A stretch of 37,698 bases of DNA from a virus (lineage: Duplodnaviria > Heunggongvirae > Uroviricota > Caudoviricetes): IMG/VR virus record IMGVR_UViG_3300029982_000015. One strand, written 5' to 3'. Position numbers and translations under genes: made by a program. Shown one piece after another: positions 2 to 37,698 of the stretch (positions are counted from its first letter, which is position 1; every line of letters begins with the position of its first letter). The notes below the pieces were generated by a model that saw only the letters and a program-made list of their open reading frames with translations, was not told where the DNA came from and made no database searches.

Positions 2-2734
2 GCAAACAAAAAGGCGGAGTACGAAGGCTGGACTAACCAGAGCACTTGGTATGTTGCCCTGCTTATCAACAACTCTAAGCAGACGCAAGACCTTGCCGAT
101 AATCTGGCAAAGAATGCCGTCAAGCTCCGCAATCAAGGAAAATTCAACCTTGATGCCTTAGTTAAAGAGTTTGCCCGTAACTTCAGCCGATTCGAAAGAC
201 AAGCTCGTAAAGAACACGAGGAGCGTGCAGCCGAAGCTCGTGAAGAACGAGGCAGGTATGAGCGTGAACAGCTTGAGGGTAAACCTGAACTGACCGACGA
301 GCAGCTTAAAGCGTTGCCCTCGGAAGAGCGTGTCAGACACATCGTTGATAGTCTCGTTGGCCCCTACTATGAGATGGGGGGAACCACCAACCAAGAGGAG
401 CCGTTCGACCCGGTTGATTGGAAAGAAATAGCTCTTAACTTCTTTGAAGAGATGGCACGAGATTCAAACACCCCGGTCGAAGATGATGACATCGACCCCT
501 TCAGTGAGGCGGATAAGGCAGAAGCACGACGGATGGGTATTGAAGCCAGCAGCAAGAGGGGTTCCAACATGACTTTGTACCACGTAACCTACACGAAGAG
601 TGCCGCCAAAATAAGGCGAACGGGAATTCGGCTTATGCAGCCCACTAACTGGGCTCAGGGAGATGGAACTCGGTACGGTGGCGGTGAAATTTATGCCTTC
701 AATAACCCCCACGACGCAATGCGTTGGGCGGTGAAAATGCAATGGGAGTTCAAGGAACCAATCAGCATTGTTGTCTTCGACTCTGGAGATAAGACATGGG
801 AAGTAGATGACAACGACCCTCTATCACAAATGACGGCCAAGGGTCAGTGGTTAAAATGTGAACACCCTATCCCACCTGAAAATATCAAGAAGATAATCGA
901 CGTGACGCCTGAACTCATCCGTTCAGTGATGTCTGAAGGAAAGAAAGCCATGATTACCAGCGACACACAACTCGAATCAAAGCCGGTGCCTCAAGGCGAA
1001 GCTCCCAAGGATGATATAGGGGTCAACTCCCATCCGGCGGACGGCGCTGCTGGCGGGTCTCCTGTGCTTGACGGACAGGTGCTCCACACCGAACGGCCTA
1101 ACGTGAACGCCATGCGTGAGGCCATCGAGACTCAAAAGGAAATGGAAGTCGGCAAGCCTGTTGACGTAAAGCAGGAGGAAGTCAAGTCCGATAAGGCGGT
1201 TACAGTGGAGAAGGGCAGCGGTACACAAATCATCATTAACATTGCTGGCAAGGAAAAGAAGCTAACGTTCTCAAATCGGGCAACTGCCTCTGCATTCATC
1301 AAGGGTGCATCAGCTAAGTTCGGTATGAAGTTCAAGCTGGTAGCCTCCGAAGTGGTTACTTTGAAGCCCGGTGACCGAATTGGATGGAAAACACATCAAA
1401 TAGGCAACGACACTCGTCAAGGTGTAGTCACAACCGTACTGCCACCAAACGATGACAACCTCGTGATATTCGACGCTAAGCAAGAAGACCTTGGTGGAAA
1501 TCCCAAGGGCACTGTTTGGGGTTACATGGGTCTTGTCTTTGAAATCAATGGACAGCGCGTAAAGCCGGTCAATCCAGAAGCTGCTGAATTTGAAATCCTC
1601 GGGTCACAGACAGCAAGCATGGCACCTCAACAGGACTTGGATAACGATAAACCGACTACCTCAGGCATTAGTGACATAGGTGGTGGGGCTCCAAGCTTCA
1701 AAGGAGCGTCAAAACAAAATGAGATTTGTATCCATTGTGGGAAGCCAAAACGCGAACACAAAAAGAATAAACAAAATAAGTGGTTCTGTTCTGGTTGGTC
1801 TAAGGAATTTAGGTCTGAAAAAAACTCCCCCAAGTATGAATCAGATAAAAAGGATGGTTCTATGAAACAAGCTGGTGGTATGAATTTCTCTCCGAGCAAC
1901 GTGCCGTCGCAAGTTGTGCAGGAGTTCTATCCTGAACTTCAGCACGAACTTATCAGCTACCCGAACGTTACTAACGCTCCGATGGTAAACCCTGAAATCT
2001 CGGGGGACTCTCACACGCTGGGTGTGGCTCCCGCTGAAGGCATCGGTGAGGCTGTGCTGCAAGGTCTTGATGTCGATCCTGAAGGTGAAGGTGATGGTGG
2101 TGAACTCCTGCCCGGTGCTCTTGAGGATGCGTTCGACAAGTTGACCATCGTCAGCTATGTCTCCACCTCCCCGGCTGGTGGCATGGGTATTGGCCGTGAC
2201 GGTAAGTCTCAAGTGCTCGAAGGTACCCCTCTTCGCAAGGAGAACGACATTCGTGGACCGATGTTCACCGACGAGTTCTACCAGAACTATCAGGCCGTTC
2301 CGGGTGCTGCTCTTGCGGCTCTCAAGGAGAAGGTTGCTGGTGCTGACGAGAAGAACCAGTTCGCCCTATTCCTGAAGCGCGTCATGGGTGAAGTTGCCGC
2401 ATCCTTCATTGCCGCATTTAAGGTCACTAGCAAGATGCCAATGAACAAGGTGCCCGGTGTCGGTGAGATTCAGTTGGCTCAAATTGAACAGGCTACCAAT
2501 GTGTCGGCATTCAACATTGTCAACACGGGCTCTCGCGTCAAATACCTCATGGATAAGCTGACCGACTCTGAGATTCAGGACGCCATCAATGATGCGTTCG
2601 CTCAAGGTGCTGTATGGCATGATGGCAAGGAAGGTGGATTCGTGTACGAGGTGTTCGTTCGTGCCGAGACCATCGACACTGACAGCATGATCCTGAAGTA
2701 CAAATTCGTTACTGGAACCAAAGAGGCTGAATGA
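2..2734 (+). CDS. 5'-truncated modular phage protein: YxGWTN..TW...VDWxEIA domain, YHVT ART-fold domain, SH3-like segment, CxxC-H-C zinc finger, conserved-looking C-terminal domain; probably virion-associated
   Basis: The frame of the 314..2734 ORF is open back to base 2 (ANKKAEYEGWTNQSTWYVALLINN...), so the true start is upstream of the window. LYHVTY at 575-592 and IPPENI at 869-886 resemble the Tpt1/KptA-type ART fold. CIHC at 1727-1738. Confidence 0.8.
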   Translation, partial: ANKKAEYEGWTNQSTWYVALLINNSKQTQDLADNLAKNAVKLRNQGKFNLDALVKEFARNFSRFERQARKEHEERAAEAREERGRYEREQLEGKPELTDEQLKALPSEERVRHIVDSLVGPYYEMGGTTNQEEPFDPVDWKEIALNFFEEMARDSNTPVEDDDIDPFSEADKAEARRMGIEASSKRGSNMTLYHVTYTKSAAKIRRTGIRLMQPTNWAQGDGTRYGGGEIYAFNNPHDAMRWAVKMQWEFKEPISIVVFDSGDKTWEVDDNDPLSQMTAKGQWLKCEHPIPPENIKKIIDVTPELIRSVMSEGKKAMITSDTQLESKPVPQGEAPKDDIGVNSHPADGAAGGSPVLDGQVLHTERPNVNAMREAIETQKEMEVGKPVDVKQEEVKSDKAVTVEKGSGTQIIINIAGKEKKLTFSNRATASAFIKGASAKFGMKFKLVASEVVTLKPGDRIGWKTHQIGNDTRQGVVTTVLPPNDDNLVIFDAKQEDLGGNPKGTVWGYMGLVFEINGQRVKPVNPEAAEFEILGSQTASMAPQQDLDNDKPTTSGISDIGGGAPSFKGASKQNEICIHCGKPKREHKKNKQNKWFCSGWSKEFRSEKNSPKYESDKKDGSMKQAGGMNFSPSNVPSQVVQEFYPELQHELISYPNVTNAPMVNPEISGDSHTLGVAPAEGIGEAVLQGLDVDPEGEGDGGELLPGALEDAFDKLTIVSYVSTSPAGGMGIGRDGKSQVLEGTPLRKENDIRGPMFTDEFYQNYQAVPGAALAALKEKVAGADEKNQFALFLKRVMGEVAASFIAAFKVTSKMPMNKVPGVGEIQLAQIEQATNVSAFNIVNTGSRVKYLMDKLTDSEIQDAINDAFAQGAVWHDGKEGGFVYEVFVRAETIDTDSMILKYKFVTGTKEAE

Positions 2735-8618: not shown

Positions 8619-10914
8619 ATCCCATTTCCTATTGGTCGCTCGACCGACACAGCAGAAAATTGATTTTCTGTGCAGTCAGATGAAGCTCACTCCAGAGCAA
8701 GTGGAGATGTGTATTCAGGTTGACCCTTCTCCCAACCAGACAGATTTTATCACTTGGATAGCACGTATGCTTGCCAAGGGACACATCCGTCTCCCTGAAG
8801 ATGGGGAGCGGATTAAGGAACAACTTATTACTTTCAACCGGCTTAAGAAAGCCCCCGGCTTCACTGGGAACAAAGACATTAACTCATACACACCGGGCAC
8901 CCTGTTCACTGTCATCGAAGATAACCAAGGCAACTTCTCCAAAAAAGAACAGAACCGGGAAAAGATTCGTGAAGGTGCCAGCGTCATCATCCGGGATGGG
9001 GACATCCTCGTCTACAAAGTGACGAAGGCTCCGGCTCTAGCTGAGCTATCGGCTGGTACCAACTGGTGTACCGCTCATGAAAACATGGGCAATACGTATC
9101 TCAGTTCAGGGCCAACCTACGTTATCTTCGATGAAGGTTCTGCCTACGCTCAGTTCCACCCTGCTACCAATCAACTGAAAGACCGTACCGACACTGAAAT
9201 TCCAGACGGCATTGTTTCCACAAGCGGTAATTATCGTAAGACAAAGAAGACTGTCGCCCGGTTTATATCTGACCCTATCTGCCTGAAAGTAATCAGCCAG
9301 CTTGCCAAGATGGGTGAGCCGGGGGTGTATAAGTACCTCACTGGGGCAAATGATCCTAAGGAAAAAGTTGAAAAGGCTTTCGCTAAGCATGGCGATGAAG
9401 TTGACAACCAGTTACGTAAGGCCGTCTATGATAACCAACCTTTGCCTCAGGCCGAGCTTGATGAAATGTTCAGGAAGAGTTACTATGGATACAATACATC
9501 TGAGCCCCCTTCTGCCAAAGTGTACTTCCGTTATTGCATGAAGTTCATGCCCGGAAAATCAAATGAACGGTTGGAAAAGCTTCTTCTCGAAGGACGACCT
9601 TCTCTCGACCTGTTGTCCTATTGTCGCAAATTTCTCAAAGGAGAACGTTGGCCGGACGCTGAGAAGAAGATTCTGACGTATGCAACAACCTCGACCAACT
9701 CTATGTACCTCTGTCTTGAATATGCCCGAGGCATCATCAAGGGACGTTGGCCTGAGTTTGAAAAGAAGCTGGGCAAAGCCAAGCTTAACCCCATCCCTGC
9801 TAAAGCCATCAAACTATATGCGGAAACCATCTTGAATCAGAGGTGGGCTGACCTCCCCGGTGCTCAGCTTACATTCAGTGGCATGGATAAGATGGAGTAC
9901 CGAATGACACTAGGTGATCCTGAGCAAGCTATCGAGTATGCTGATAAATTCATCAAGGGTCGCTGGAAACCCCTTGAAGTAGTATTGCGCCAGATTGGAG
10001 ATACGACTCATCTGTTGAATTACTCTCGCAAATTCCTTGGTGGAAGTCGCGATTTGGAGATGGAACCTGACACATTAAGGAATGCCAAACCGGAGCAGTT
10101 GTATGACTATGCACGCAGTGTCATCAAGGGACGTGACCCGGAGATTGAGGAACGTCTTTTACAGACCACCGATGTCATGCCAGCTATTAACTATGCTTCC
10201 CATATCATGAAGGCACGTTGGCCTGAATTGGAACAGAAGCTGTTGAAGTTCGCTGAGGATTACGATTTCAGTGAAAGCTACTCAAGTGGTAGTAGTAGTG
10301 GTTTTGTACCTCAAAGTAAAAAGGATTATTGGAATAATGCCCGTAAACTCCCTGAAACAATAAGGGACTACGTTACGAGTGTGGTCCGTGGCCGTTGGCC
10401 TGAATTTGAAAAGCTACTCCTTGATAGGTACTCCAAGCATCCAGACGAGTGGACAAAAAACCAACAATGGGTTGACGGTTATATATCTCTCCTTAGCGAA
10501 ATAACTGAGGACGGGGAAGAAGTGACCGATGAAGATACAGGAGATAAATACCACAAACAAGTTCGCATAGCTACACCGCCAACATGGCCGGAAGGTGAAA
10601 AACGGTTGGCTACTCGTGATCCCAACTATGAGGCTATCATCGTTAAAGAGATACAAGAAGCTATGGCGAGTGATGAAGCTGTCGATCCCCGCTCTTCCAA
10701 CGTGGAGTATAACCTATATCACGCAGTTGAGATTTTATATCAATATCTCAAGGCGTTGAAGTATTTTAATACTGAATGGCCTGAGGGGGTTAAGTTCCTT
10801 AATGAGGTAGAGGACATGCGAACCAAGCGAGAAGGGTTCTGGAACACATTCAACAAATTCCACTTGTCGTCTCTTTTGAGAAGAAAGAGTTATGCGCTTA
10901 GAGACTGTCTATGA
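8608..10914 (+). CDS. GTxWC-motif (PcfJ-like) N-terminal domain plus Y..IKGRWPE.E helical repeats
   Basis: DPSP...ITWI, KDINSY and AGTNWCTA (9055-9069), then about 9 repeats; GAGG upstream of ATG 8608. Confidence 0.75.
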   Translation: MRFLSHFLLVARPTQQKIDFLCSQMKLTPEQVEMCIQVDPSPNQTDFITWIARMLAKGHIRLPEDGERIKEQLITFNRLKKAPGFTGNKDINSYTPGTLFTVIEDNQGNFSKKEQNREKIREGASVIIRDGDILVYKVTKAPALAELSAGTNWCTAHENMGNTYLSSGPTYVIFDEGSAYAQFHPATNQLKDRTDTEIPDGIVSTSGNYRKTKKTVARFISDPICLKVISQLAKMGEPGVYKYLTGANDPKEKVEKAFAKHGDEVDNQLRKAVYDNQPLPQAELDEMFRKSYYGYNTSEPPSAKVYFRYCMKFMPGKSNERLEKLLLEGRPSLDLLSYCRKFLKGERWPDAEKKILTYATTSTNSMYLCLEYARGIIKGRWPEFEKKLGKAKLNPIPAKAIKLYAETILNQRWADLPGAQLTFSGMDKMEYRMTLGDPEQAIEYADKFIKGRWKPLEVVLRQIGDTTHLLNYSRKFLGGSRDLEMEPDTLRNAKPEQLYDYARSVIKGRDPEIEERLLQTTDVMPAINYASHIMKARWPELEQKLLKFAEDYDFSESYSSGSSSGFVPQSKKDYWNNARKLPETIRDYVTSVVRGRWPEFEKLLLDRYSKHPDEWTKNQQWVDGYISLLSEITEDGEEVTDEDTGDKYHKQVRIATPPTWPEGEKRLATRDPNYEAIIVKEIQEAMASDEAVDPRSSNVEYNLYHAVEILYQYLKALKYFNTEWPEGVKFLNEVEDMRTKREGFWNTFNKFHLSSLLRRKSYALRDCL
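9526..10419 (+). repeat. about 9 degenerate protein repeats, consensus Y(A)xx(I/V)(I/L)KGRWPExExxL
   Basis: Examples: EYARGIIKGRWPEFEKKL, EYADKFIKGRWKPLE, DYARSVIKGRDPEIEERL, NYASHIMKARWPELEQKL, DYVTSVVRGRWPEFEKLL. Confidence 0.85.
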
Positions 10915-24848: not shown

Positions 24849-25021
24849 GCGGTCTCCTCCAACCATGCGCGTACAATGGTAATCAGTGTGCGCGGTTCTA
24901 TAAGTAAGTCCAGTAGTATCAAATGTAATGCATGGACTGAGTTAGTAATACTAGGAAATCGGAATTTTCCACATTTGAGATTCATCTATAGGATAAGAAT
25001 AGCTAAACACCAAGGGGCTAT

Positions 25022-25561
25022 ATGAATTTTGAATCCAAGTTTCTTCGCATAGCTGAAAAATTGTCTCAGCGGCACTCCACTGAGTACCGAGGCATTCCCA
25101 TTGTAATCGAATGGCCAAAAAATTCAGTACGTACAGGCAAGGATGAACAGGGCAAGCCTTGGAAGAGGACCATGCAATGCGATTATGGCTACGTCTCCGA
25201 CGTTAACGGCAGGGACGGGGAGGGTCTGGATGTTTATATTGGCGAAGATGAGGCGTCGGACAAGGTGTTTGTGATAGAGCAGTTGGATGCAAAGGGGAAG
25301 CTAGATGAGTACAAGATTATGTTGGGTTTCCCGAATTTGGATTCAGCTTTAGAAATGTACCTCGCCCATTATCCAACCGGCTGGGATGACGACCGCGTGG
25401 GTGACATCTCTGAAGTCCCCTTCGATTATGCCTTCGACACGATTGAGGCGCATCAGGAAGAGCAGGGTAGGACGCCTAAAAACAGCAGTACCACTGTAAA
25501 AACTGCTGGTCTTACTTATCTAAAAGCTCTTCAGTCGATGACTACCGTCTCCTTCAAGTAG
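25022..25561 (+). CDS. InPase (polyvalent-protein inorganic pyrophosphatase-like) domain protein
   Basis: IVIEWPKNSVRTG.D..G..W...M..DYGY....G.DG..LDVYIG...VFVIEQ...DEYKIMLGF...YL.HY..GW; ends with a VKTAG tail. Confidence 0.85.
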   Translation: MNFESKFLRIAEKLSQRHSTEYRGIPIVIEWPKNSVRTGKDEQGKPWKRTMQCDYGYVSDVNGRDGEGLDVYIGEDEASDKVFVIEQLDAKGKLDEYKIMLGFPNLDSALEMYLAHYPTGWDDDRVGDISEVPFDYAFDTIEAHQEEQGRTPKNSSTTVKTAGLTYLKALQSMTTVSFK

Positions 25562-25582
25562 AGCCTCGGGCTCCGGGAGGCT

Positions 25583-25906
25583 GTGGAAATGCTAAAATCC
25601 GACCGCCAGCTTAAGAGATACTATATCAAGTTCAACAAACTATACTTTGGTGGAGAACTACCTGACGCTGTGGTTTGGTGGGAGCCATTAGGGGGAGCCA
25701 CCTTCGGTGACTGTTTATATCTGGAAGAAGAAAAGATATGGAGAATCCGAATCAACCCTTTCGTTGGGGGGTGGAGAGCTATCTCCAAAGTCACCTTAAT
25801 CCACGAAATGATCCACATCAAGTGCGGTCACCGGCATGGTAAAGCTTTCGACATAGAACGCCAGAGGCTGTTGGGGTTCAAGGAAATACGGGATTTAGTC
25901 CTTTAG
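25583..25906 (+). CDS. SprT-like zinc metalloprotease domain protein
   Basis: FNKLYFGGELP...TLIHEMIH...HGKAF; GGGAGG before GTG. Confidence 0.85.
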   Translation: MEMLKSDRQLKRYYIKFNKLYFGGELPDAVVWWEPLGGATFGDCLYLEEEKIWRIRINPFVGGWRAISKVTLIHEMIHIKCGHRHGKAFDIERQRLLGFKEIRDLVL

Positions 25907-25938
25907 ACTACCGCTTTCTTATATAGGCAGGATTGCGG

Positions 25939-28900
25939 ATGCGGAACGAACTCCTTCAAAAAACAGATGCGGCACAAGTGACGGGCACTACTGCGTTCAA
26001 AACAGCCGCAAACCAAAACTTTGAAGTTTTAAGTAAGATAGACGCTATCATCAATGAGATGATGACCGTACTAGCTCCGGGGCTCCCTAGACCCAAGATA
26101 AAAATAAACAACAGTCAAGGCAACACCCTCGGTCTATGTCATTGGCAATATGGTCTAAAAGAAGGGAAGCCTTTCTGGTGGGATAACACTGAGATTGAAA
26201 TTCAAAAACGAGTAACGGGAGATGAACGTACACTTCGTAGGATTTTGGCTCATGAGTTGGCCCACTCAGAGGATTTCCTTGTTAATGAAGTTGCCGACCT
26301 GAAGAAGTACGGGTTTCATACATACAAAATGATGCGTGGTATTCATCGTGGTGACGGTGGTCACGGTCCTAAGTGGATGGCAATAGCTCAACGTTTTAAT
26401 GCCAAGTACGGTGCCAATTTTGTTACAAAAACATCTGACCAAGACACAGTAACTGACGATACTAACCTCCGTCCTTTTTACGTTCTCATCTCTGCCGACA
26501 GCAGTGGAAGCACTTTGGGTTGGCAAATCTCGCTTCGCTTGAGCCCTAAGCAGAAAGAATACCTCGGCCAATGTGCTGATGGAAAGATGACTTATCCCAA
26601 GCGGTTGTTCATGAGCACTGACCCCATCCTAATGAAGTATGGGGCTCCTATGATTAAGTATCATGGTTCCTCCATGCCAAGAACGGACGAGCAGAAGTCC
26701 AGACTCAAGGAACTATGGGATAGTGGTGAAGACATTTTGCAACAGTTCAAGCTTAAACCCCCGAGGATAGCGAAGCATAAAACTACGTCTAAAGTTGCCA
26801 GTCCTGACTTCAACTACACAAAGTTCAATGATCGTGAAAAAGACTTGAAAAAACTCCGCATTCAGGAGCCGGACCACGGCATTCATTTGCTTGAGGCCGA
26901 AGCAATCGACCCCATCAAAAAATCCATGGAGAAGACGCAGGGATACGTCACCGCCGAGAAATTGTTTTTGAACAGAGAGGAACTTTCCTACGCGATTACC
27001 CATTCTAATATCAAGCCGGAATGGCGTGGCACTGGTTTAGGTCAGATGCTGTACGACCGCGTTATTGCACAGGCTAAGAAACGGGGCGCAGAGTATCTGT
27101 ATTCAGACGTAACCCCCAACAACCTCAGTAAAGACGCAGTTGGGGCTTGGAAGCGCCTCAGTGAACGTTATCCCGTAGAATACGATGACACTCAAAGGCG
27201 GTATCGCATTCCTTTGAAGTCTCAGGGAAGGAAAACCGCCGCTGCAACTGACGGTCAGGATGTATGGAACAGCTTGCAGCAGGATGCTCTGTCAGGTATC
27301 GTCTATCATGGAACTACAGTAGAAATAGCCAACTTAATTCTCAAGGAGGGTTTCCGTGGGCTTGAGTTCGATGCCATTCTACAAGATGTGCTGGCAAAAT
27401 ACGACATGACCGAGGCCGACATCCCCAAGAAGATGGTCAAAACGCTGGGAATGACCAGACGGAGCTATCAAGGTGAAGCCCATTTAGTCAGCACCTCACC
27501 GGGTGGTGGGGTTGCCGGTCGTTGGGCAGGGGGCGGTGGCGAAGTCCCACGTCAAATCGAAGCCTACCTTCTCGGCAAATACAGCACTCGTGATGTAAAG
27601 AACTCCCGGTTGAATGGTGAACCGGCCATCATAAAGTGTCGCATCAAGAACTTTGAATCGACCCGCCACTACGCAACCATGAAGAAAACAGTAGATGGGT
27701 TGAACCGGCTCATCGCCGATGGTGGTGTGAACGGAAACTTCTCTCCTCGGGCTGCGGCTGTGGATACGTGGGAAACCTACACCAACTTTCTTTGCAAGCC
27801 GGAAGATTTGGAAGTAGTGCAGGTATTCGAAGGACGACCTCAGGTTGATGCGTTGATTAAGCAGCCGTTGCGGGGCTATGTGAAGACCGCCATGCCTGAT
27901 TTTGGTTACAAGAAATACAACGACCGCGAGGAAGACCTCAGCAAGATTACTTTCGAAGTGCGCCCCGGCAGGATGATAGGAGGCGACACGCTTGTCATTG
28001 AAGCATGGACACCCGACCGCCGCCCGAATCCGCACTCTCAACACACGTTGCCGGTTGGTTACATTGAACTGGATAAGGAAAACGGCAAGGACTATGTGTT
28101 CGATGTCTCTATTGAGGATGACTGGCGTGGAACTGGCCTCGGTCAGATGCTCTACGACCGTGCGATTGAAGAAGCGAAGAAGCAGGGTGCCGACCGCCTA
28201 TGGTCTAGCACCGATATGCAGCCGGATGCTCACAAGGCATGGAAGCGGTTGGCACAACGTTACCCAGTGAAGAAGTCCAAGGGCCGCTATTACATCGACT
28301 TCAAGGCGACGAAGACTGCCATCAACAAGTGGGATCATGGAATTCGAGACACTGGCAGTCCAATGAGCTTGTTCAGGGTCATGTCCAGACGGTGGGACTT
28401 TTTCACACAATCCCAGTTTGATCCAAAACCCGCATCACCCGTTGGCAAGATGGGCTCCTATCAAATAAGCAAAGCAAATTACGATGAAAAGGAACCCACC
28501 TTTGCGGTGTACGACAGTGTGAATAAAAGGAATGCCGGGTTCTGTGAAATGGATCAGCAAGAGCATTACTTCAGCATCGGTGCTATCGCTTTTGACAACT
28601 GGTATTTGGGGCTAGGATTACCCGCTAAGCTGTATGCGTGGTTGATTAAAAATGGTCACTGCCCAACCATCGTATCAGGCGATAAGCAGACCGATGGTGG
28701 CCGTGCCGTTTGGAAACAACTGGCCAAACTACCCGATATTTTTGTCTATGCGTGGAACAAGGAAACTGGAGACATGTTCTCAGTTGACCAGAATGACCTC
28801 AGCGCCGAGGAGCCGCTGTGGGATGACGACAATGATGATACCGTTGAACTCCTGCGTCAAGAGATGCGTGAAGGCGTGACTCGCGAAAGAGCGATGGAGA

Positions 28901-31887
28901 TTGCTCAAGAGTTGGTTGACATTGAAGATGACAAAATGAAGTATGCCAAGAACACCGTGCTCGTAGCTGTGAAGAGTGAAGACAAGACAGCCAGTATCCA
29001 ACATTTCGCGTCAATTAAGACCAACATCGCGTCAATTAAGACCAACATCGCGTCAATTAACACGTCAATTAAAACCAGCAGCGTTAAGGAAGCGTATGCA
29101 CGCGGAGAGGATGAAAGCACCAAATGGGAAACCATGATGGAGTCTGATAAGTATAAGGACTGGCTTCCTCAGGCATACGCACGCGAGTTATCCGAGCCGT
29201 GGGTAGAGTACGTGCCCATCTCTCAGCTACTCCCCCTGCGTGAGTATCACTGGAGCCCAAAGGACAACCGGCATGGTGAGGATGCGTTTCATGATTCTGT
29301 CGAAGACATCAAGCGCCATGGCATCCGGTCGCCTATTACCCTCCGTTATTTTAAGGATACCAACACAGCCCTTGTGATCGAAGGCAACCATCGTATCGCA
29401 CAGGCACAGATGGCTGGGCTCACCGAAGTCCCTGCCCGTGTCACCATTGCCACCTATAAGCGTGACCAATATGGCACCGACATTGGGGGACATACTGGTG
29501 GCCCTGTGCGTGGGATGCTTAACCCCAACGAACGCATCTTCTACGACTTCATCCCACCCTCTGCTATTGGTTTGAGTGGGAAGAAGGTGAAGACAGCCGC
29601 TGTAGAAAATGAACGAGATAAGAAGTTCGATGAACTAGCTTCCGACCAAAGAGGAGAGCCTGAGAAGGCCATGCTTCGTTGCCAGATGCATCCTTTAGGT
29701 GCTGGCATTGGCACTCACGCGCTGGAGCACTGTGGTGACATTACGAACCGTATGGCTCAACACTTCACCTACTTTCAGGGGCAGTACGGAATTGTAAAAG
29801 ACAAGGTAGATAAGTGCCTTTACTGGCTGACCAATGAGTATGGGTTCGAACGCGAAGTGCGTGAGAACATGCAGAACAATTACCGGGCTCAAGTGGAAGA
29901 CAACAACCCGAAGCTCAAGGGTCGCAGTTATGAGGAACTGGCGAAAGAATTTTTCAAGCTGTGGGAGGCTTACGGTAACGCTCATAGCCGATTGACTGTT
30001 TATAACCGCGCTCAGAGATACGCCAAGTTCGCGGCTGTTGCCTTGGGTCACCGCAATTTCAGTGAAGCCATCATCTATCTCAAGTCTCTCAAACGGATTC
30101 TGGATATGGGAGAAGCTGAGTACATCAAGGAAGCTGGGCTGTATGTTCCCAGTGGAGTGACAAAAGAGGCTGGAGTAAAGGATGTATTAAAGGGGCTTGG
30201 TGTCGCGTTGCTTTCAGGAGCACTCGGTACTGCCTTGGTCTCAAAACACACCACCACACCTCCTTCTAACCCTCATGACAAGGAATTGAATCAAGTAGGG
30301 CATGACATGATTAAGCGCCTACCACAAACTATTCAAAGCCGGATAGGAGACCCAAATACAATCACGTTCAAAGCTGGCGTGCCCTCCACTAGAGAAGGGG
30401 GTGGAGATGAAATCTGTCAGGTGGAACAAGGTACTCGGGTAGTTTATGTCAACCCTAAATACATAGATATGTTCCTACACACCGAAATTGCAGACCAGCT
30501 TACAGCACATGAGACCACTCACATCATGCAGTCGGAAATCGACCCACAAGGAAATCGCTTCCCAAAGACCAATGAAGCTGACCCATACGGCAAGATGAAA
30601 GACCCCAACACAATCGTTCAGACACTGAAAGACCTTCGGTTGAAGAGTGACCGCATGTGGAATCACTCACGTGAAGAACAGGCCGCAATTGTGCAGCAGT
30701 ATGAGGCGCTTGTGGATATGTTGAAGAGTGCTAAAGACCCTGCACAAAAGAAGGACATCGAGCAGAAAATTAAAGTATTTGAGCCATACATCGCCGACTA
30801 CAACCAGTTAAAGGTTGGTGCCAAGAAAACAATCGACATACCACAAATCCGGGCGATTCTAAAAACCCTACGCGAGGAGGATGGAGAAGGCCAATGTCAC
30901 ACCATGGCCGACATACTTGAGAACAAGTTCGGCTGGGAAAAAGCCAGTGGATTCTACCTGTACCCCACTCCTGATAAGGGACACAACGGCCATGGCGACC
31001 ATTCTTGGAACGTGATGAAAGATGGCACGATCATCGACGGCACCCATGACCAGTTCGGACCGCCTGACATACTCGTAGTTCCACCGGGCGCTGCTATCCA
31101 GAAAAAATATCATGCCTATTGCGGAAGTCATGAGTGCCCAATATGCACATGCCCCGAGTGCAACCCCGGCTTTGCAGAAGAGGTGAATAAAACCGCTTCA
31201 ATTCTAAAAGGAACCCACGTCTACCACGGCACTGATTCAAAGTCAGCAGAAGACATTCGCAAGCGTGGAGTGGATATAACCAAATGCAGCCCCGGCTATT
31301 TTGGTACAGCATTTTACACTGCACTCGATCCTGACCTTGCCAAATCAAACTACGCCGACTTCTCGGATGACGAAGAAGGTGGAGTTGTGCTGGAGTTTGA
31401 AATCATTGGTGGACATATCCTCGACTTGAAAGAATCGGATGACTGGGACGAGTACGCCGCACTTAAAGTACGTCCTGATGCAAATCCAAACTTCCCCAAA
31501 ATGATGGTACAAAAGGGAGTTGACGGATTGGCTGATGAATCCTTCGGAGGTGTGTGTTTCTACAACCCTCGGTGCTTAAAGCTGGTGGGTGTGATGAAAT
31601 TTGGGAGTCACAAGCAGACCCCGATGTCCGACACCACGTTCCCCAACATGGACAAGAACGACGGTGAGGGCTCTAATGCGTATGCCCTTCAGCCCGAGCG
31701 TGTAGAAGGCAACAGTTTGATGCCAAGTCTTGAGGCCATGGTGCCGGGGGCGAAGTTGGGCAAGGAAGTTTATCACGGCACTCCTTTCCATTTCGATTCA
31801 TTCGACACGGACAGAATCAACACGGGTGAAGGTAATCAGACCTACGGGTGGGGGACTGTACTTCGCGGGAAACCGAGATGTTGCTGA
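25939..31887 (+). CDS. giant polyvalent protein, part 1: SprT, GNAT, ART-like, GNAT, GNAT, ParB-like, unknown domain, zincin, papain/transglutaminase-like, ART-like, start of ART-PolyVal
   Basis: HELAH (26251), RGTGLGQMLY twice, YHGT (27304, 31222, 31771), GLGLPAKLY...QTDGGRAVW, EGNHR (29380), HETTH (30508), C...HSW...IID (30895/31000/31036). The frame breaks in a G5 run at 31850-31854. Confidence 0.88.
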   Translation: MRNELLQKTDAAQVTGTTAFKTAANQNFEVLSKIDAIINEMMTVLAPGLPRPKIKINNSQGNTLGLCHWQYGLKEGKPFWWDNTEIEIQKRVTGDERTLRRILAHELAHSEDFLVNEVADLKKYGFHTYKMMRGIHRGDGGHGPKWMAIAQRFNAKYGANFVTKTSDQDTVTDDTNLRPFYVLISADSSGSTLGWQISLRLSPKQKEYLGQCADGKMTYPKRLFMSTDPILMKYGAPMIKYHGSSMPRTDEQKSRLKELWDSGEDILQQFKLKPPRIAKHKTTSKVASPDFNYTKFNDREKDLKKLRIQEPDHGIHLLEAEAIDPIKKSMEKTQGYVTAEKLFLNREELSYAITHSNIKPEWRGTGLGQMLYDRVIAQAKKRGAEYLYSDVTPNNLSKDAVGAWKRLSERYPVEYDDTQRRYRIPLKSQGRKTAAATDGQDVWNSLQQDALSGIVYHGTTVEIANLILKEGFRGLEFDAILQDVLAKYDMTEADIPKKMVKTLGMTRRSYQGEAHLVSTSPGGGVAGRWAGGGGEVPRQIEAYLLGKYSTRDVKNSRLNGEPAIIKCRIKNFESTRHYATMKKTVDGLNRLIADGGVNGNFSPRAAAVDTWETYTNFLCKPEDLEVVQVFEGRPQVDALIKQPLRGYVKTAMPDFGYKKYNDREEDLSKITFEVRPGRMIGGDTLVIEAWTPDRRPNPHSQHTLPVGYIELDKENGKDYVFDVSIEDDWRGTGLGQMLYDRAIEEAKKQGADRLWSSTDMQPDAHKAWKRLAQRYPVKKSKGRYYIDFKATKTAINKWDHGIRDTGSPMSLFRVMSRRWDFFTQSQFDPKPASPVGKMGSYQISKANYDEKEPTFAVYDSVNKRNAGFCEMDQQEHYFSIGAIAFDNWYLGLGLPAKLYAWLIKNGHCPTIVSGDKQTDGGRAVWKQLAKLPDIFVYAWNKETGDMFSVDQNDLSAEEPLWDDDNDDTVELLRQEMREGVTRERAMEIAQELVDIEDDKMKYAKNTVLVAVKSEDKTASIQHFASIKTNIASIKTNIASINTSIKTSSVKEAYARGEDESTKWETMMESDKYKDWLPQAYARELSEPWVEYVPISQLLPLREYHWSPKDNRHGEDAFHDSVEDIKRHGIRSPITLRYFKDTNTALVIEGNHRIAQAQMAGLTEVPARVTIATYKRDQYGTDIGGHTGGPVRGMLNPNERIFYDFIPPSAIGLSGKKVKTAAVENERDKKFDELASDQRGEPEKAMLRCQMHPLGAGIGTHALEHCGDITNRMAQHFTYFQGQYGIVKDKVDKCLYWLTNEYGFEREVRENMQNNYRAQVEDNNPKLKGRSYEELAKEFFKLWEAYGNAHSRLTVYNRAQRYAKFAAVALGHRNFSEAIIYLKSLKRILDMGEAEYIKEAGLYVPSGVTKEAGVKDVLKGLGVALLSGALGTALVSKHTTTPPSNPHDKELNQVGHDMIKRLPQTIQSRIGDPNTITFKAGVPSTREGGGDEICQVEQGTRVVYVNPKYIDMFLHTEIADQLTAHETTHIMQSEIDPQGNRFPKTNEADPYGKMKDPNTIVQTLKDLRLKSDRMWNHSREEQAAIVQQYEALVDMLKSAKDPAQKKDIEQKIKVFEPYIADYNQLKVGAKKTIDIPQIRAILKTLREEDGEGQCHTMADILENKFGWEKASGFYLYPTPDKGHNGHGDHSWNVMKDGTIIDGTHDQFGPPDILVVPPGAAIQKKYHAYCGSHECPICTCPECNPGFAEEVNKTASILKGTHVYHGTDSKSAEDIRKRGVDITKCSPGYFGTAFYTALDPDLAKSNYADFSDDEEGGVVLEFEIIGGHILDLKESDDWDEYAALKVRPDANPNFPKMMVQKGVDGLADESFGGVCFYNPRCLKLVGVMKFGSHKQTPMSDTTFPNMDKNDGEGSNAYALQPERVEGNSLMPSLEAMVPGAKLGKEVYHGTPFHFDSFDTDRINTGEGNQTYGWGTVLRGKPRCC
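29007..29077 (+). repeat. in-frame 21-nt tandem repeat (CGCGTCAATTAAGACCAACAT x2 plus partial copies) encoding ASIKTNI
   Basis: Exact copies at 29007-29027 and 29028-29048; partial copies at 29049-29060 and 29063-29077. Confidence 0.9.
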
Positions 31888-33223
31888 GTATTATCGAACA
31901 TCTTTGGAGAAGAACAAGCCCGACTGGTCTTATGTGGTCAATGGCCGGAGAATCACGCGGCGTGACCCGGATTACGTTCCAGCCGAAATGGCTTGGTTGG
32001 CGCAGGAGTACGGCCCGGTGGACAAGGACTGGGCCGACCAAGAACTGGGGGCTCGTTACATGGGCGGTTTCAATGGAAACCATAGGACAACCAAGAAGAG
32101 ATTCTTGGAGTTCTGCAAAACTCCCATTGAGAAGCAGTCCGGAGGTCAGTTGTACAAGGCTGACATCCCCGAAGACAATGTGTTACTCGACTGGGACAAA
32201 CCCCTCAGTGAGCAATCACCATTAGTTCGCAAGGTGCTTGTGAATGAAATCGCAAACGCGAGAAAAGGTGCTGAAGAGTCCAGTCCGGATTGGGGTGACT
32301 TGGCCGACCACAACAAGATAGATGGCATCATCACGGGTCGCTCCGTTTACCGCGACATTTCGGTTCAACAGGGCTCTGACAAAGCGGCCAGCGAATACCT
32401 GCGCTCTCTCGGTGTCAAGGGCATTAAATACCTTGATGGAGACAGCCGAGTCAGAGGTGACGGAACTTGTAACTACGTCATTTTTGACAGTAAAGATGTT
32501 AAAAATGTTACCACGTTGAAGACCGCTGACCTTGAAGGCGACGGCCAGAGCAGCTTCTTCGAAGAAGTTGAAAACCCACACAGTGTTCAACCGCTACGTG
32601 CATCTACTGAGGAAAAGACAGCCCATGCCTCCGATTACCTTCCTGATTTCGACACTTTCCTCGCGAAACATGGAGGCATTAAGGGGCTCATTCGTGAGTA
32701 TGATTGGAATATCAGTGAGTGGTTCAATTTCAATGGGGAGAACACACCTGAAGCAGAAGAAGATGCCCTACAACAAGCGACTGACTACCTGCGAGGTGTA
32801 TACGAACATTTCTTTTATGAACATGACAGTCGAGGTGGCAAGTTTAATGTCTACCGCTGCATGACATTAGAGAGCCTTCAGCAACTTAAGAAACAGGGGT
32901 TTGGAACTTACTGGTCATGGGATGAGGATGCCGCAGAAGCCCATTGGGGGAGTTTCGGTCGCGGACAGTCCAAATATTATTTTTGGGCACGAGTATCCGA
33001 CCGCGACGTTGACTGGGATAACACAATGCTATGCAATCTAAACCCCTCGCTTGGTGAGGAGGAGAAAGAGATTCGTCTGAAAGACGGAACGCCGCTGCAA
33101 TTGCTGGGATATAAAACTGAGAACGACAGGCAATGGCGACCCGTCAATGCTGCGTGGAAGAACGTGACCGCCAGTGCTGAAATTCCAACTGTGGCTTCCA
33201 AAGTAGGGGACAACCATGCCTAA
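31856..33223 (+). CDS. giant polyvalent protein, part 2 (frameshifted continuation): rest of ART-PolyVal plus a YR...W-S-W...ExE ART-like domain
   Basis: GLYFA...VAEYY...LLDWDKPLSEQ...GVKGIKYLDG...NYVIFD completes the domain begun at 31771. The fused product would be 2427 aa. Confidence 0.82.
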   Translation: MYFAGNRDVAEYYRTSLEKNKPDWSYVVNGRRITRRDPDYVPAEMAWLAQEYGPVDKDWADQELGARYMGGFNGNHRTTKKRFLEFCKTPIEKQSGGQLYKADIPEDNVLLDWDKPLSEQSPLVRKVLVNEIANARKGAEESSPDWGDLADHNKIDGIITGRSVYRDISVQQGSDKAASEYLRSLGVKGIKYLDGDSRVRGDGTCNYVIFDSKDVKNVTTLKTADLEGDGQSSFFEEVENPHSVQPLRASTEEKTAHASDYLPDFDTFLAKHGGIKGLIREYDWNISEWFNFNGENTPEAEEDALQQATDYLRGVYEHFFYEHDSRGGKFNVYRCMTLESLQQLKKQGFGTYWSWDEDAAEAHWGSFGRGQSKYYFWARVSDRDVDWDNTMLCNLNPSLGEEEKEIRLKDGTPLQLLGYKTENDRQWRPVNAAWKNVTASAEIPTVASKVGDNHA

Positions 33224-34037
33224 GTTTCTATACCACGTAACCTACCTCGCCAATCTTGACAAAATTGCCACCTCCGGTCTCCTGCCTAATGCCAACAACG
33301 GCATTGGCGGACCGGCGTTGAAGAGCTACAAGGCCGGTAAGGTGTTCCTGACCGACGCTGGTGGTGTGGATTTCTGGCTCAACCGAGCGGAGATGTTCGC
33401 TTACAATGACTCAGATAACATCGCCGAGGATGGTCTCGTGCCGGTCGTCCTCCGTGTTGTGGAACCAAAGTATCTGACCAAGGATGAGGAAGGCACCAAC
33501 GACTCCGGCCATGAGGCGTACTACTGCTCACGTGTGAACTCCGAGATTGAAGTCTGGACGGGTAACCAGTGGCAGAGCATCTACAGTGCTAACCTCGACC
33601 CGCACACGTTTGTGGATGAGGAAGGGTACATACAGGAGTCGCCATTGACGAAGCCTAAATTTGCCGGAGCCGGAGATGCTAACATCTTCCTACCGCGTCA
33701 TCACACAGAAACCCCCGCATTGCACTCAGACCCTGTATTTGAGACTGAACAGGAAGCTTGGGACACTCTCTTGCCTGACCATAAAGTAGCCCACGACTAC
33801 GAGGCGATGTTCAAGCAGTTGATTGCCGACCAGCCACAATTTGAATCCATTGTAAAGAGGGAAGTTCAATGGGCTAAAACCCACCTGAAGAAACAGGACA
33901 GAATCTCTTGGTACCTCCGTTGGTGGAGGCTCAGTGTATATGACGCTCTCTCTAAAGACACCGGGGTTATCCGTGACAACCCAGCCATGGCGGAAAAGGT
34001 ACAAGAAGGCGGTTCAACAGGGGTTGGCGTTCATTAG
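33216..34037 (+). CDS. YHVT ART-fold domain protein, N-terminal part of a frameshifted gene
   Basis: MPKFLYHVTYLANLDKIATSGL...KVFLT; AGGGG upstream; second module WAKTHLKKQDRISWYLR is cut off. Confidence 0.75.
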   Translation: MPKFLYHVTYLANLDKIATSGLLPNANNGIGGPALKSYKAGKVFLTDAGGVDFWLNRAEMFAYNDSDNIAEDGLVPVVLRVVEPKYLTKDEEGTNDSGHEAYYCSRVNSEIEVWTGNQWQSIYSANLDPHTFVDEEGYIQESPLTKPKFAGAGDANIFLPRHHTETPALHSDPVFETEQEAWDTLLPDHKVAHDYEAMFKQLIADQPQFESIVKREVQWAKTHLKKQDRISWYLRWWRLSVYDALSKDTGVIRDNPAMAEKVQEGGSTGVGVH

Positions 34038-34575
34038 TAGCAAGAATAACAACACAGCCACGCTACCCTTGGATGGTTTCCATGCTGTTACTCGTTGGCA
34101 TGGGGCTCTCGATCACTATCTGTCACTGCCGATTCCAGCCATTCAAAACCATGTATGGGGATGGGAAGACTACCCTACCCTGACTGAAAAGTTCAGTGTC
34201 CTGCGAGTGCAGCTTCCAGAGGGGCTGGACTATGCTCCACGTTATCAGGAAGCTTTTTGGAAAACCCCAATTCCTGCGGAGAGTATTTCGCTTCAATCCA
34301 AAGATGTCTTCGTGAAGCCCGAAGCGAATGCACGGCAGATTGCGGTCTGGGCATCTTGCATCCCTGTTTACGAGGCGGTTCAGAATGGCACCCGCGATCT
34401 TCAGGGAGTAACTCACCTTGAGAAGGGCATGATTGAGTGGTGGCAGCAGCATCCCGAGGACTTTGCCAAGGCGCTACGGCTGGTGGAAGCGGCTTATGGG
34501 GAATCCCCCATCGATTGGCGCACCGGGCGAGTGGAAAGTGGTACATCCATGAAGGCTGAAGTTCACAAGATTTGA
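33998..34575 (+). CDS. frameshifted continuation of the 33216 gene (chimeric C-terminal part)
   Basis: Removing one A from 33994-33997 reads AMAERYKKAVQQG...LDHYLSLPIPAIQN; the fused product would be 452 aa. Confidence 0.5.
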
Positions 34576-34620
34576 TGCCCAAAACACCTTGACTTTCTAT
34601 GTCATAGTAGGGGCAAATTG

Positions 34621-37600
34621 ATGGAAGACCGCATTCCAACCGGGTTGGACGTAAACGAAATCCCATTTAATAAGAGACACCGCAGAAATAGCGGTTACAA
34701 TGAACTCGTCTTAATTGACGCCGGGAAGTTCAAAGCCCTGTGGGAGTCTCAACACCCCGGAGAGAAGTTTGACTGGAATCCCAGCCGGTTGAAGCGTCTG
34801 GAACTGCTGGAATCAGTTGACGATTATCCAAAAATCTATGCTTACGACACCGACCGGATAGATGTGCTCGACGGGCGGCACCGCATCACTACCGCTGCAA
34901 ATCGTGGTGTTCCCATCTGGTGTGCAACTAAGCCGGGAACCCAATGGCCTGAGGGTCTTTGCCTTCAAACCAAAAAAGGGGCTGGGCTTACCCAAGACCA
35001 AGACTGGATGGGTCAGCCGGGGGATGTTACCAAGAACCCTGCGTTTCAAGCATGGTTCAATGGGAGCAAGGTGGTTGATGACCATGGTCGGCCACTGCGT
35101 GTATATCACGGCACAAATCAAAGCTTCGATACTTTTAACACTGAGAGAGGAGGGGGTTCTACTCAAAACAACGCGGCACGTATGGGCTTTTGGTTCGCCG
35201 CCCACCCTACAGTCGCCTCAGAGTATGCTGATCTTGCAAGTAAGCAAGTCGTTCATAACGTTGAAGAGCATGAAAAAAAGTACAATCAACTATCCAAAGA
35301 AATTGAAAAAGCTGAGAGAAGGAGAGATTGGGAAACCCTAGAGCGACTCACCCTTGAATTAGAGAACCATGAATTCTCAGCTTTGCGAGAAGAACCAAAA
35401 GGCATGAATGTAATGCCCGTATTCCTACGTATCACGAACCCCAAGGTAATTGAAGCAAACGGCTCCTTCCTCAACATAAAAGATGCCGAAGGTAACTGGA
35501 TTCCGGTGGGTGACCTTATTAAAAGTGCGCGAGATAAGGGGCATGATGGGGTGGTTTTTAAGGACGTTGAGGACACTCCGGGAGATTCACACACCATTTG
35601 TGACCACTTTGTTGTATTCTCCCCTAGTCAAATCAAGAGTGCGATTGGGAACGCTGGCACGTTCAACCCTAAGGACAACCGGGTCACGGCATCATCCCCG
35701 CGTGCGGACGAGTACAAATGGACACGTATGGGCGACGAATACCTTGTCAACCTGAACCATGACAATTATAGTCCTTCCCTCATAAAACCACTTGACCAAA
35801 AAACCGCCGCAAAAGCCATATCTGCTGATTGGTATCATGGTAGCCCCCATAAGTTTGACCAATTTAAAACTGTGAGCAAAGCGGGAGTGACTAAAGAAGT
35901 TGTCGAGCAGCCTATTTTTCTCACCCCGGATTTGGGATTTGCTAAGTTACATGCCGGAGCCCACGGGTGGGTTTATAAAGTCCGTGCTAATGTTGAGAGC
36001 ACTTTTGATGGTGTGGACTTGCTTAACTATAGCGAGAGGTATTACCTTGACCCCAAAACCTTCACCCCCTTGGGTAAGAAAGTTTATGAGGATATTGCGA
36101 ACAACAAAATTTGGTTGGATGGTGATGACGACCCAGTGGGGTACATTAAGGCGCTTGCCCGTAGGAACTGGGATGCAACCCAATGCCCTGAATTTGTTCG
36201 TTGGATGAAAGCGAACGGTTACGACTCATTCCTTGAAGAGGGAGAAGGTCACACAAATTTAGGGGTGTTTGATTCAGGGAGGTTGGAAATTATCTCATCC
36301 ACCCCTGTAGACAAGGCTACTACCGCTTCGAAGACCGCAGCTTACACCGCCATCATGGATAAGACCGCCAGTGTGCAGTCTAAGCGGTTGGCTGTGCGTC
36401 GTCGCATGGATGTTCGTCATAGGGCTGGAATAAAGAAACAGGCTCTGACCATTGGACCCGTTTACCACGGTACAACGTATGACTTTGATGACTTCAAGCG
36501 AAACAAGGGTTTGCGTTCGGGTTTTCTCGGCATGACGCTTGAGGTTGACGTGTTTGCCTTCTTCTTTACCAAGAGTAAGCAACAAGCCATTGCGTACGCA
36601 AAGAATCGACAGCAACACACCAAGCAGCCCTGTCGCCTTATCACGGCGAATTTGACCATCAACAACTTACTCGACCTAACCAACCCTAACTGGGTAAATA
36701 CATCCATCACGACGCCTCCGATTCCTCTGCACAAGATTCAGAAGACAGACACTGCTGAAGATTCGCCGGGGATTTACGAAGAGCACGCCGAAGAACTGAA
36801 CAAGTCCACAGGATTGTTGGATTACCTTGTCAATTACCTGTTGGCCGACGAGATGACTAGCACCGAGTGGGGTGAACTCGCGATTGATGATGGTCGTGAC
36901 AACTATGACCGAAAAATTCGTGAGCCGCAGCTTGAGGAAGGGTTCCGGGCTTACGACCTATTTGACAACAAAAAGGTAACCGACGCTCTACACTATCTAG
37001 GCTTTGATGGAGCCAAGGTTCCTGAGGGCGATGACCAAGAGTTCGGGGGTGAGTCCTACTGTGTTCTATCGTCCAACCAAGTAAAGATTATCTCCAATGT
37101 GGATATTGACCGTAAGAAGGCAGCATCCACCAAGACTGTGCGTGCGTATCACGGAACCACGAAGCAGTTCGACACGTTTGAAGTTCCAGCCATGTTCCAT
37201 GTCCGCCGCAAGTATTGTGAAGACCTCATCGCGGGTCAACCAGACGGTCACATCATTGAGGCTATTCTGACTATCAACAATCCGGCTAACCTCGATACGC
37301 TGCACGTATCACCGAGTGACCCCAAATTCAAGGAGTTGGCGAAGAGCCTCGAAGAGCAGGGCTACGACGGAGCACAGTATAAGAACGAAGCGTGGATTGC
37401 TTTCTACCCTGACCAGATTCGGGTAGTCAATGGCAAACTGCCCACGTTCACCGTTCGTCTGCGGAGCACGATGGACAAGGACTCCCCCCAGTATTCATGG
37501 GAGGGAGAAGCCAAGAACGAAGCTGCGGCCCGTCGTGAGGCGAAGAAATACTACGAGGGTATCTACGCTGGCGACAAGGAAGTTAACGACGATGCTGTTT

Positions 37601-37698
37601 TAAACCAAGCTGTTAAAGCTGGGAAGTACCCTGAATTGGCTGGTGAGGGTTGGCCGCAAGACATCCCAAGCACCGAAGCCTTGAAGCGTCTTGGGTAT
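34621..37698 (+). CDS. 3'-truncated polyvalent protein: ParB-like domain plus four tandem ART-PolyVal-like domains
   Basis: Manual translation shows no stop from ATG 34621 to the window end (1026 codons). DGRHR motif; YHG(T/S) at about 35104, 35833, 36463 and 37147, each closed by G(Y/H/F)D(G/S)...(V/F)F..xQ-type motifs. Confidence 0.88.
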   Translation, partial: MEDRIPTGLDVNEIPFNKRHRRNSGYNELVLIDAGKFKALWESQHPGEKFDWNPSRLKRLELLESVDDYPKIYAYDTDRIDVLDGRHRITTAANRGVPIWCATKPGTQWPEGLCLQTKKGAGLTQDQDWMGQPGDVTKNPAFQAWFNGSKVVDDHGRPLRVYHGTNQSFDTFNTERGGGSTQNNAARMGFWFAAHPTVASEYADLASKQVVHNVEEHEKKYNQLSKEIEKAERRRDWETLERLTLELENHEFSALREEPKGMNVMPVFLRITNPKVIEANGSFLNIKDAEGNWIPVGDLIKSARDKGHDGVVFKDVEDTPGDSHTICDHFVVFSPSQIKSAIGNAGTFNPKDNRVTASSPRADEYKWTRMGDEYLVNLNHDNYSPSLIKPLDQKTAAKAISADWYHGSPHKFDQFKTVSKAGVTKEVVEQPIFLTPDLGFAKLHAGAHGWVYKVRANVESTFDGVDLLNYSERYYLDPKTFTPLGKKVYEDIANNKIWLDGDDDPVGYIKALARRNWDATQCPEFVRWMKANGYDSFLEEGEGHTNLGVFDSGRLEIISSTPVDKATTASKTAAYTAIMDKTASVQSKRLAVRRRMDVRHRAGIKKQALTIGPVYHGTTYDFDDFKRNKGLRSGFLGMTLEVDVFAFFFTKSKQQAIAYAKNRQQHTKQPCRLITANLTINNLLDLTNPNWVNTSITTPPIPLHKIQKTDTAEDSPGIYEEHAEELNKSTGLLDYLVNYLLADEMTSTEWGELAIDDGRDNYDRKIREPQLEEGFRAYDLFDNKKVTDALHYLGFDGAKVPEGDDQEFGGESYCVLSSNQVKIISNVDIDRKKAASTKTVRAYHGTTKQFDTFEVPAMFHVRRKYCEDLIAGQPDGHIIEAILTINNPANLDTLHVSPSDPKFKELAKSLEEQGYDGAQYKNEAWIAFYPDQIRVVNGKLPTFTVRLRSTMDKDSPQYSWEGEAKNEAAARREAKKYYEGIYAGDKEVNDDAVLNQAVKAGKYPELAGEGWPQDIPSTEALKRLGY

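Follow-up and report, generated by a model that had tools for sequence, protein, structure and literature searches.

A K-T-A-[A/S] peptide at module junctions of polyvalent proteins in a soil jumbo phage: a candidate prohead-protease site

Introduction

Does a phage that strings unrelated effector domains into giant chains also take those chains apart, and if so, at which peptide and by which enzyme? The question is raised by a 37,698-nucleotide stretch of viral DNA (IMG/VR record IMGVR_UViG_3300029982_000015, hereafter the window), in which positions 25022-37698 encode an InPase protein, a small SprT-like zincin and a series of polyvalent proteins, here called PV1, PV1b and PV2, whose sequences are punctuated by the tripeptide K-T-A (KTA). 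Polyvalent proteins are widespread, and their processing has so far been a hypothesis with no known cut site. A sequence-only reading of this DNA had proposed that KTA marks domain boundaries and acts either as the site of a maturation protease or as a capsid-targeting signal. Here, we report that the motif is enriched far beyond expectation, that it lies at module junctions, and that in related phages it recurs in head-maturation proteins. Judging from sequence, we put at roughly 60% the probability that these are prohead-protease cut sites at which packaged effector modules are released.

The source is a giant uncultured soil phage, and the window is a jumbo-phage fragment from the clade of Tunturi_5, with phage G as distant kin. 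Tunturi_5, an acidobacterial jumbo myovirus of 309 kb, is the nearest isolate; its large terminase (TerL) is 44% identical to that of the window, and its gp321 is matched by PV1. A megablast search with positions 25000-37698 against 50,697 phage records found no close DNA relative. Polyvalent proteins typically unite at least two unrelated conflict-type domains in one polypeptide; by Pfam, SprT-like, two GNAT and ParB_N domains were found in PV1 and three ART-PolyVal domains in PV2 (E 2e-45), with InPase adjacent. That these chains are phage encoded is evident from TerL in the window, from Tunturi_5 as the nearest isolate, and from the capsid, protease and sheath genes of a syntenic relative, contig G006 (see below).

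Enrichment of the motif and selection on the peptide

All 13 KTA coordinates given in the sequence-only reading proved to be correct and in frame in long plus-strand open reading frames (ORFs) (Table 1), and the variants that it listed as KVAS (26791) and KEAG (30163) are likewise present. Composition alone would predict 1.41 copies (Poisson P about 4e-9), and none of 2000 residue shuffles reached 13 (maximum 7). KTA is the top-ranked over-represented tripeptide in the proteins of 25022-37698; the ORFs in the rest of the window hold a single copy in 7407 residues. At the DNA level, the codons of the 13 sites vary (AAA or AAG; ACT, ACA or ACC; GCT, GCC or GCA), and we therefore conclude that selection acts on the peptide. 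A DNA repeat or recombination site was considered as a candidate and rejected on the same grounds.

A logo built from 124 non-redundant KTA sites has only one informative position outside the tripeptide, namely, the next residue (A in 35%, S in 27%), and carries nearly zero information in the eight residues on either side. Together with the lineage variants described below, these predicted sites define the motif as the tetrapeptide [K/I/V]-T-A-[A/S] in a variable context. Since the flanks are uninformative, the element is better described as a short recognition site, typical of a protease site, than as a structural element.

Placement at module junctions

PV1 is built, in order, of a leader, an SprT-like module, a GNAT module, an ART-like module, a second GNAT module, an unassigned module, ParB_N, another unassigned module, an HExxH zincin and the start of an ART module. 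The claim that KTA lies between recognizable domains was borne out by Pfam: the SprT-like (residues 48-159), GNAT (about 347-389 and 707-772) and ParB_N (1114-1170) domains are separated by sites, with KTA at residues 23, 434, 651, 794, 1018 and 1220 around them. In the standalone InPase, too, KTA precedes a short tail, as had been claimed. PV1, PV1b and PV2 are mosaic relative to 28 homologous giant proteins, and the mosaic breaks at the motif; 61 of 186 BLAST homology-block ends fall within 12 residues of a KTA, whereas random placement of the sites gave 15.8 +/- 7.5 and did not reach the observed count in any of 1000 trials, and with the variant sites added the count is 95 against 28.8 expected.

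The expected association with interdomain disorder was seen in an AlphaFold2 model of PV1 residues 270-660, built from a 24-row alignment (mean predicted local distance difference test score [pLDDT], 81). The GNAT and ART-like domains are the confident parts of this model, and low confidence is confined to the stretches that contain KVAS287, KTA434 and KTA651 (model residues 1-23, 161-170 [mean, 57] and 379-391, respectively). In an alignment of 20 proteins, GNAT modules start with [K/I/V]-x-A-[S/A]-P-D-F-G-Y and end with K-x-A-[A/S/G], regardless of their neighbors. Overall, sites flank at least six unrelated module types, and the distance from KTA to YHGT in the ART modules ranges from 9 to 36 residues.

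The motif in homologous proteins

A search for long homologues yielded 27 polyvalent proteins, several of them on contigs of 270-455 kb. The motif recurs in these proteins and in Tunturi_5, in lineage-specific variants, as would be expected if it were conserved in the homologous linkers of related phages. In many homologues, KTA is the top or near-top tripeptide (11 copies versus 0.9 expected in P0016, 6 versus 0.35 in both P0018 and P0019, and 6 versus 0.5 in P0007). The variants include S-ITA-A, found nine times in P0022, x-TA-A in G002, and K-[AEST]-A-[AG] in Tunturi_5 gp321. In L004, a 303-kb relative, a Prok-JAB gene (9549-10004) lies between the InPase and polyvalent genes, in place of the standalone SprT-like gene.

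A single-sequence InPase scan of viral contigs gave no match; the relative G006 was reached through a helicase alignment search of viral contigs. G006 is a syntenic IMG/VR contig of 78.8 kb (identities of 82% for the helicase, 85% for o20 and 82% for o23), on which InPase and SprT genes are followed by three giant ORFs (7820 residues in total) and then by the structural module. KTA is the top tripeptide of the entire G006 proteome (38 versus 9.2 expected; P 9e-13); 25 copies lie in the InPase/polyvalent block, and the remainder include the capsid protein and the protease.

Two further elements are held in common by these proteins. The leader M-R-N-x-L-L-Q-K-(Q/T)-A is common to nine or more polyvalent proteins, whose first modules are of no fewer than three kinds (25939-25965 in the window; P0002, P0005, P0007, P0008 and P0013; and the G006 ORFs at 11148 and 16144), and a module that is internal in PV1, after KTA1220, is N-terminal in G006, directly after the leader. 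Similarly, the 17-residue InPase tail that follows KTA (G-L-T-Y-L-K-A-L-Q...) is kept in the 437-residue InPase protein of G006, which has acquired two extra KTA-bounded modules ahead of it. From its distribution, the leader looks like a candidate capsid-targeting sequence, and a better candidate for that role than the motif itself, to which the sequence-only reading had alternatively assigned it.

The motif in head-maturation proteins of relatives

The sequence-only reading had suggested looking for the motif at the N termini of capsid and scaffold proteins. In the relatives, it is indeed found close to the N termini of the prohead protease, of scaffold-like proteins and of the major capsid protein (gp334 in Tunturi_5), where it lies at about residue 19. 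Residues 17-22 of the capsid protein read L-L-K-T-A-G-G at 71 loci, K-T-A-A at 4 and K-S-A-A at 5 (80 of 80 loci). The prohead protease gene is present in both G006 and Tunturi_5 (gp331), and its product matches PHROG 18299 ("head maturation protease"; E 2.7e-17). Across 33 protease sequences, K5 and A7 are invariant, and K33, A35, A276 and S277 are at least 90% conserved amid variable segments. In an AlphaFold2 model, the core (residues 45-225) is confident, and all three K-x-A sites lie in flanks with a pLDDT below 50.

The top three of 48,161 PDB chains in a structural alignment with this model were T4 gp21 (Z 8.4; 3.2 A over 127 residues), varicella-zoster virus (VZV) protease (Z 5.5) and human cytomegalovirus (HCMV) protease (Z 4.1), and the model thus indicates that the protease of this clade has the T4 gp21/herpesvirus assemblin fold. 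A Foldseek search of the PDB with the same model returned nothing at E <= 0.001; T4 gp21 ranked first (E 0.03). Pfam S77, the family of T4 gp21, had no match in Tunturi_5 and none in the control genomes either, which makes this negative uninformative.

Among other virion proteins, K-[TS]-A-[ASG] is 5-fold enriched in the acidic scaffold-like protein encoded between the protease and capsid genes and 3-fold enriched in ejection-protein homologues; no excess was found in the decoration protein (gp333), gp329 and gp327 families, and the sheath family (six sequences with two sites) is too small to judge. The most enriched proteins of Tunturi_5 are gp328 ("DNA ejection protein," seven sites), gp348 (three KTAS within the first 75 residues), gp350 ("DarB-like") and the polyvalent gp321, all of them encoded in the structural region. 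In the relatives, then, the capsid protein, the protease, the scaffold and internal proteins share one motif, as they do in phages of the T4/phiKZ type.

Phage G (L162, 552-1965) has V-K-T-A-A at about residue 43 of its protease gp19 and K-K-T-A-L at residue 10 of the acidic gp20.

Discussion

In the current study, we found that a four-residue peptide marks the junctions of polyvalent proteins in the window and in related phages, where it also marks head-maturation proteins. We propose that the genes of 25022-37698, and probably ORF 2-2734, encode polyvalent cargo, that is, chains of effector modules that each fold on their own (SprT-like zincin, GNAT, ART-PolyVal, ParB-like, InPase and unassigned modules), each bounded by [K/I/V]-T-A-[A/S], and that this tetrapeptide would be the recognition site of the phage prohead (capsid maturation) serine protease. 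The polyproteins would be loaded into the procapsid by means of the N-terminal leader M-R-N-x-L-L-Q-K-x-A, of short C-terminal tails, or of both. The protease would then trim the capsid protein, itself and the scaffold and would cleave each junction of the polyproteins, most likely on the C-terminal side of the alanine, such that the head comes to hold many separate small enzymes that enter the host with the DNA. Packaging, cleavage, the bond that is cut and delivery to the host are steps that we infer. The shared leader and the conserved InPase tail fit such a load-then-cut scheme. Whether this extends to the whole clade of soil jumbo phages, with leaders and tails loading any chain and an assemblin-fold protease of herpesvirus-like Ala|Ser specificity dicing it at K-T-A|A/S into dozens of effectors, is a more tentative matter, to which we would give slightly less than even odds.

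The nearest functional parallels are found in T4, phiKZ and SPN3US, where a single prohead protease acts on the capsid protein, on itself, on the scaffold and on the internal proteins that are ejected, always at the same short motif; cargo is directed to the procapsid there by short N-terminal leaders with this motif at their end (PMC5694885). The clade resembles these phages (whose proteases are gp21, gp175 and gp245, respectively) in that its motif is common to the capsid protein, the protease, the scaffold and internal proteins, in the assemblin fold of its protease, and in its short N-terminal leaders ending in the motif, for which the capsid-targeting sequence of T4 is the counterpart. 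Linkers and propeptides with several sites are also on record (PMC5694885). However, most substrates of those enzymes have a single domain and one propeptide, whereas in the clade up to about 15 predicted sites per chain lie between whole enzyme modules.

Herpesvirus assemblins (MEROPS S21) cut at maturational and release sites of the form (V/L/I)-x-A|S. In our logo, which comprises predicted sites only, the Ala is invariant, A or S follows it in 63% of sites, and K, I or V stands two positions before the Ala. The clade protease has the fold of the herpesvirus enzymes, and its putative sites would resemble theirs in the small Ala|Ser/Ala pair, in selectivity two positions before it and in the removal of a short C-terminal tail, although sequence identity between the proteases is only 8-10% over the structural alignment. 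Unlike in the herpesviruses, P3 is mostly Lys and P2 mostly Thr in the clade motif. Moreover, the herpesvirus enzyme cuts only itself and the scaffold and not effector polyproteins.

The cargo itself is of the kind described by Iyer, Burroughs, Anand, de Souza and Aravind in 2017, whose polyvalent proteins combine the same domains (MPTase/SprT, ART-PolyVal, GNAT, ParB and InPase), are likewise of phage origin, and led those authors to the same idea of a peptidase that releases the chain into separate domains (PMC5512222). Their study names no cleavage motif and favors the embedded zincins, and assemblin-like peptidases appear there only as rare C-terminal fusions; here, by contrast, a defined junction peptide points to a prohead protease acting in trans. 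In the Dar system of phage P1, large multidomain antidefense proteins (DarB and DdrB) reside in the head, where DdrB is among those packaged and is known to undergo proteolysis (PMC5512222). ORF 2-2734 provides a link to this system, being homologous to the DarB-like gp350 of Tunturi_5. The loading and processing enzymes of the Dar system differ from those of the clade, and we know of no repeated junction motif in it.

Several points weigh against cleavage by the prohead protease. Every characterized phage prohead-protease site is cut after Glu (L/I-x-E, S/A/G-x-E and A-x-E in T4, phiKZ and SPN3US), and K-T-A-[A/S] has no Glu; nor does the 124-site logo contain x-x-E. By analogy, the system would work like those of T4 and phiKZ yet fall outside their specificity class. 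All of the sequence-level tests of the maturation-protease proposal came out in its favor, but no capsid, scaffold or protease gene lies within the 37.7-kb window, and the link to the head therefore rests on syntenic relatives. There, the capsid N terminus is conserved as a whole, and its KTA could be structural rather than a cut site. In the more distant phage G, KTA is weak genome-wide (47 versus 30.7 expected, or 1.5-fold), mycobacteriophage Myrna has a homologous capsid protein that lacks any K-x-A site, and the complete clade genome G009 shows no strong KTA signal; from this fading we conclude that the motif variants are lineage specific. Counts across relatives are also not phylogenetically independent. 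There is no virion proteomics for any member of the clade, the Tunturi_5 paper included. Finally, the zincins could do the cutting instead; their HExxH motif is unbroken in the standalone SprT-like gene and, within the polyvalent proteins, in both the N-terminal module of PV1 and a third zincin module.

This last point leads to the possibility that the motif is the cut site of a metallopeptidase belonging to the polyvalent system itself, be it one of the SprT-like/MPTase zincins (in PV1 or at 25583-25906) or, in relatives, JAB, with cutting placed before packaging or after injection, as in Iyer et al. 2017. MPTase-mediated processing is a published hypothesis (PMC5512222), and the gene immediately preceding the polyprotein cluster always encodes a small peptidase (SprT in the window, G006 and L005, a contig 99% identical to the window; JAB in L004). 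However, we find this difficult to square with the fact that the motif also occurs in the capsid protein, in the flanks of the protease and in scaffold-like proteins, and none of these is tied to SprT. Autoprocessing would have the motif accompany an embedded zincin peptidase, and it does not: P0015, P0016, P0018 and P0019 are rich in KTA and have no annotated SprT domain or SprT match. Furthermore, where the neighboring peptidase switches from SprT to JAB, the motif is unchanged. We regard cutting by such an enzyme as decidedly unlikely, whichever stage it is assigned to.

Alternatively, the motif may not be cut at all and may serve as a flexible linker or cassette end that tolerates shuffling, or as a docking peptide (e.g., for a scaffold or portal partner), with the polyproteins acting as intact chains in the manner of the N4 virion RNA polymerase (vRNAP). 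Modules are in fact exchanged exactly at the motif, as seen in the G006 InPase insertions and in the PV1 module that is N-terminal in G006; the stop codons of homologues fall at the position of PV1 KTA651; and some polyvalent proteins are packaged unprocessed (PMC5512222). Nevertheless, a mere linker needs no specific K-T-A-[A/S] kept under synonymous codon change and would not be met again in the disordered protease flanks and at the N terminus of the capsid protein, and DNA-level microhomology is weak because the codons vary. On balance, we consider an uncut motif unlikely. It might also be argued that the enrichment is an artifact of composition, or that duplicated domains each inherited a KTA; the two GNAT modules and several of the ART modules are indeed paralogous, and some sites share descent. 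Yet shuffling did not reproduce the observed count, the sites border six or more unrelated module types and have flanks that are not conserved, and the spacing from KTA to YHGT varies among the ART modules. The shuffles, the block ends and the logo exclude chance and paralogy, to which we assign next to no weight.

Returning to the prohead protease, our literature search found no paper that names the motif or links polyvalent proteins with a prohead-protease site. The new part of the proposal, namely, that head cargo processed by the prohead protease at a new motif extends to whole effector polyproteins, is partly supported by the sequence comparisons. A four-residue junction motif shared with capsid-maturation substrates makes processing testable in a cultured phage, Tunturi_5. 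If the proposal is true, phage prohead proteases gain a non-Glu specificity akin to the Ala|Ser sites of herpesviruses, and it is the prohead protease, not the embedded zincins, that matures polyvalent proteins. It would also explain the free shuffling of effector modules in these phages, in that the motif would be a point at which modules could be exchanged, added or moved into genes of their own with function kept. A rule for annotation would follow: split the polyproteins at the motif and count the effector modules (most of them without an assigned function) that are delivered at infection.

Other features of the window

Table 1. Genes and motif sites discussed in the text (window coordinates; motif positions are those of the first nucleotide unless a range is given)
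Feature	Coordinates	Strand	Remarks
5'-open ORF, 910 residues	2..2734	+	DUF7249 start; ART-like YHVT module; five K-x-A-[ASG] sites
Large terminase TerL	3078-6254		PHROG terminase families
InPase gene, 179 residues	25022..25561	+	KTA at 25499-25507, 20 residues before the stop
Standalone SprT-like zincin gene, 107 residues	25583..25906	+	HExxH intact; no KTA
Polyvalent protein PV1, 1984 residues	25933..31887	+	Multidomain ORF
PV1, KTA sites	25999, 27232, 27883, 28312, 28984, 29590, 31189		
PV1, variant sites	26791 (KVAS), 28426 (KPAS), 30127 and 30163 (KEAG)		
PV1b, frame-2 continuation of PV1	31730..33223	+	KTA at 32519 and 32615; KAAS at 32381
Two overlapping ORFs, 273 and 213 residues	33216..34575	+	ART-like LYHVT module; KFAG variant
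Polyvalent protein PV2, 1027 residues, 3' open	34618..37698	+	ParB-like N terminus; at least four ART-PolyVal modules
PV2, KTA sites	35800, 36331, 36361		
PV2, variant sites	35683 (VTAS), 34975 (KGAG), 37114 (KKAAS)		

Beyond the polyvalent cluster, the window encodes an SNF2 helicase, endonuclease VII and other replication genes. A 770-residue ORF (8602-10911) was considered as the portal gene and rejected; it is not a portal. The 5'-open ORF at 2..2734 is probably a further cargo or polyvalent protein: its C-terminal 280 residues are 45% identical to Tunturi_5 gp350, and it immediately precedes TerL, the position that gp350 occupies on the circular Tunturi_5 map. TerL itself has 1059 residues in the window versus 638 in Tunturi_5; the match comes in two pieces, and residues 374-424 show a weak match to LAGLIDADG_3. 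The extra length probably reflects an inserted intein or homing endonuclease.

PV1 passes into frame 2 within an ART-PolyVal module, at a G run near 31850 (31840-31870; …GGGTGGGGGACTG…). Removal of one G would restore the frame across the junction with PV1b and give Y-G-W-G-L-Y-F-A-G-N. L005, an independent contig, is identical at this point, and the +1 shift is therefore real (recoding or decay) rather than an error confined to the window. The two ORFs at 33216..34575 correspond to a single gene of 452 residues in L005; an extra G in the window near 33990 (GGCGGAAAAGGTAC versus GGCGGAAAAGTAC in L005) splits it. The L005 counterpart of PV2 comprises at least 1693 residues. PV1b also carries VTAS at 33164, 19 residues before its stop codon. 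Lastly, a tandem peptide repeat, A-S-I-K-T-N-I in approximately three copies (28984-29080), follows immediately after the KTA at PV1 residue 1018.

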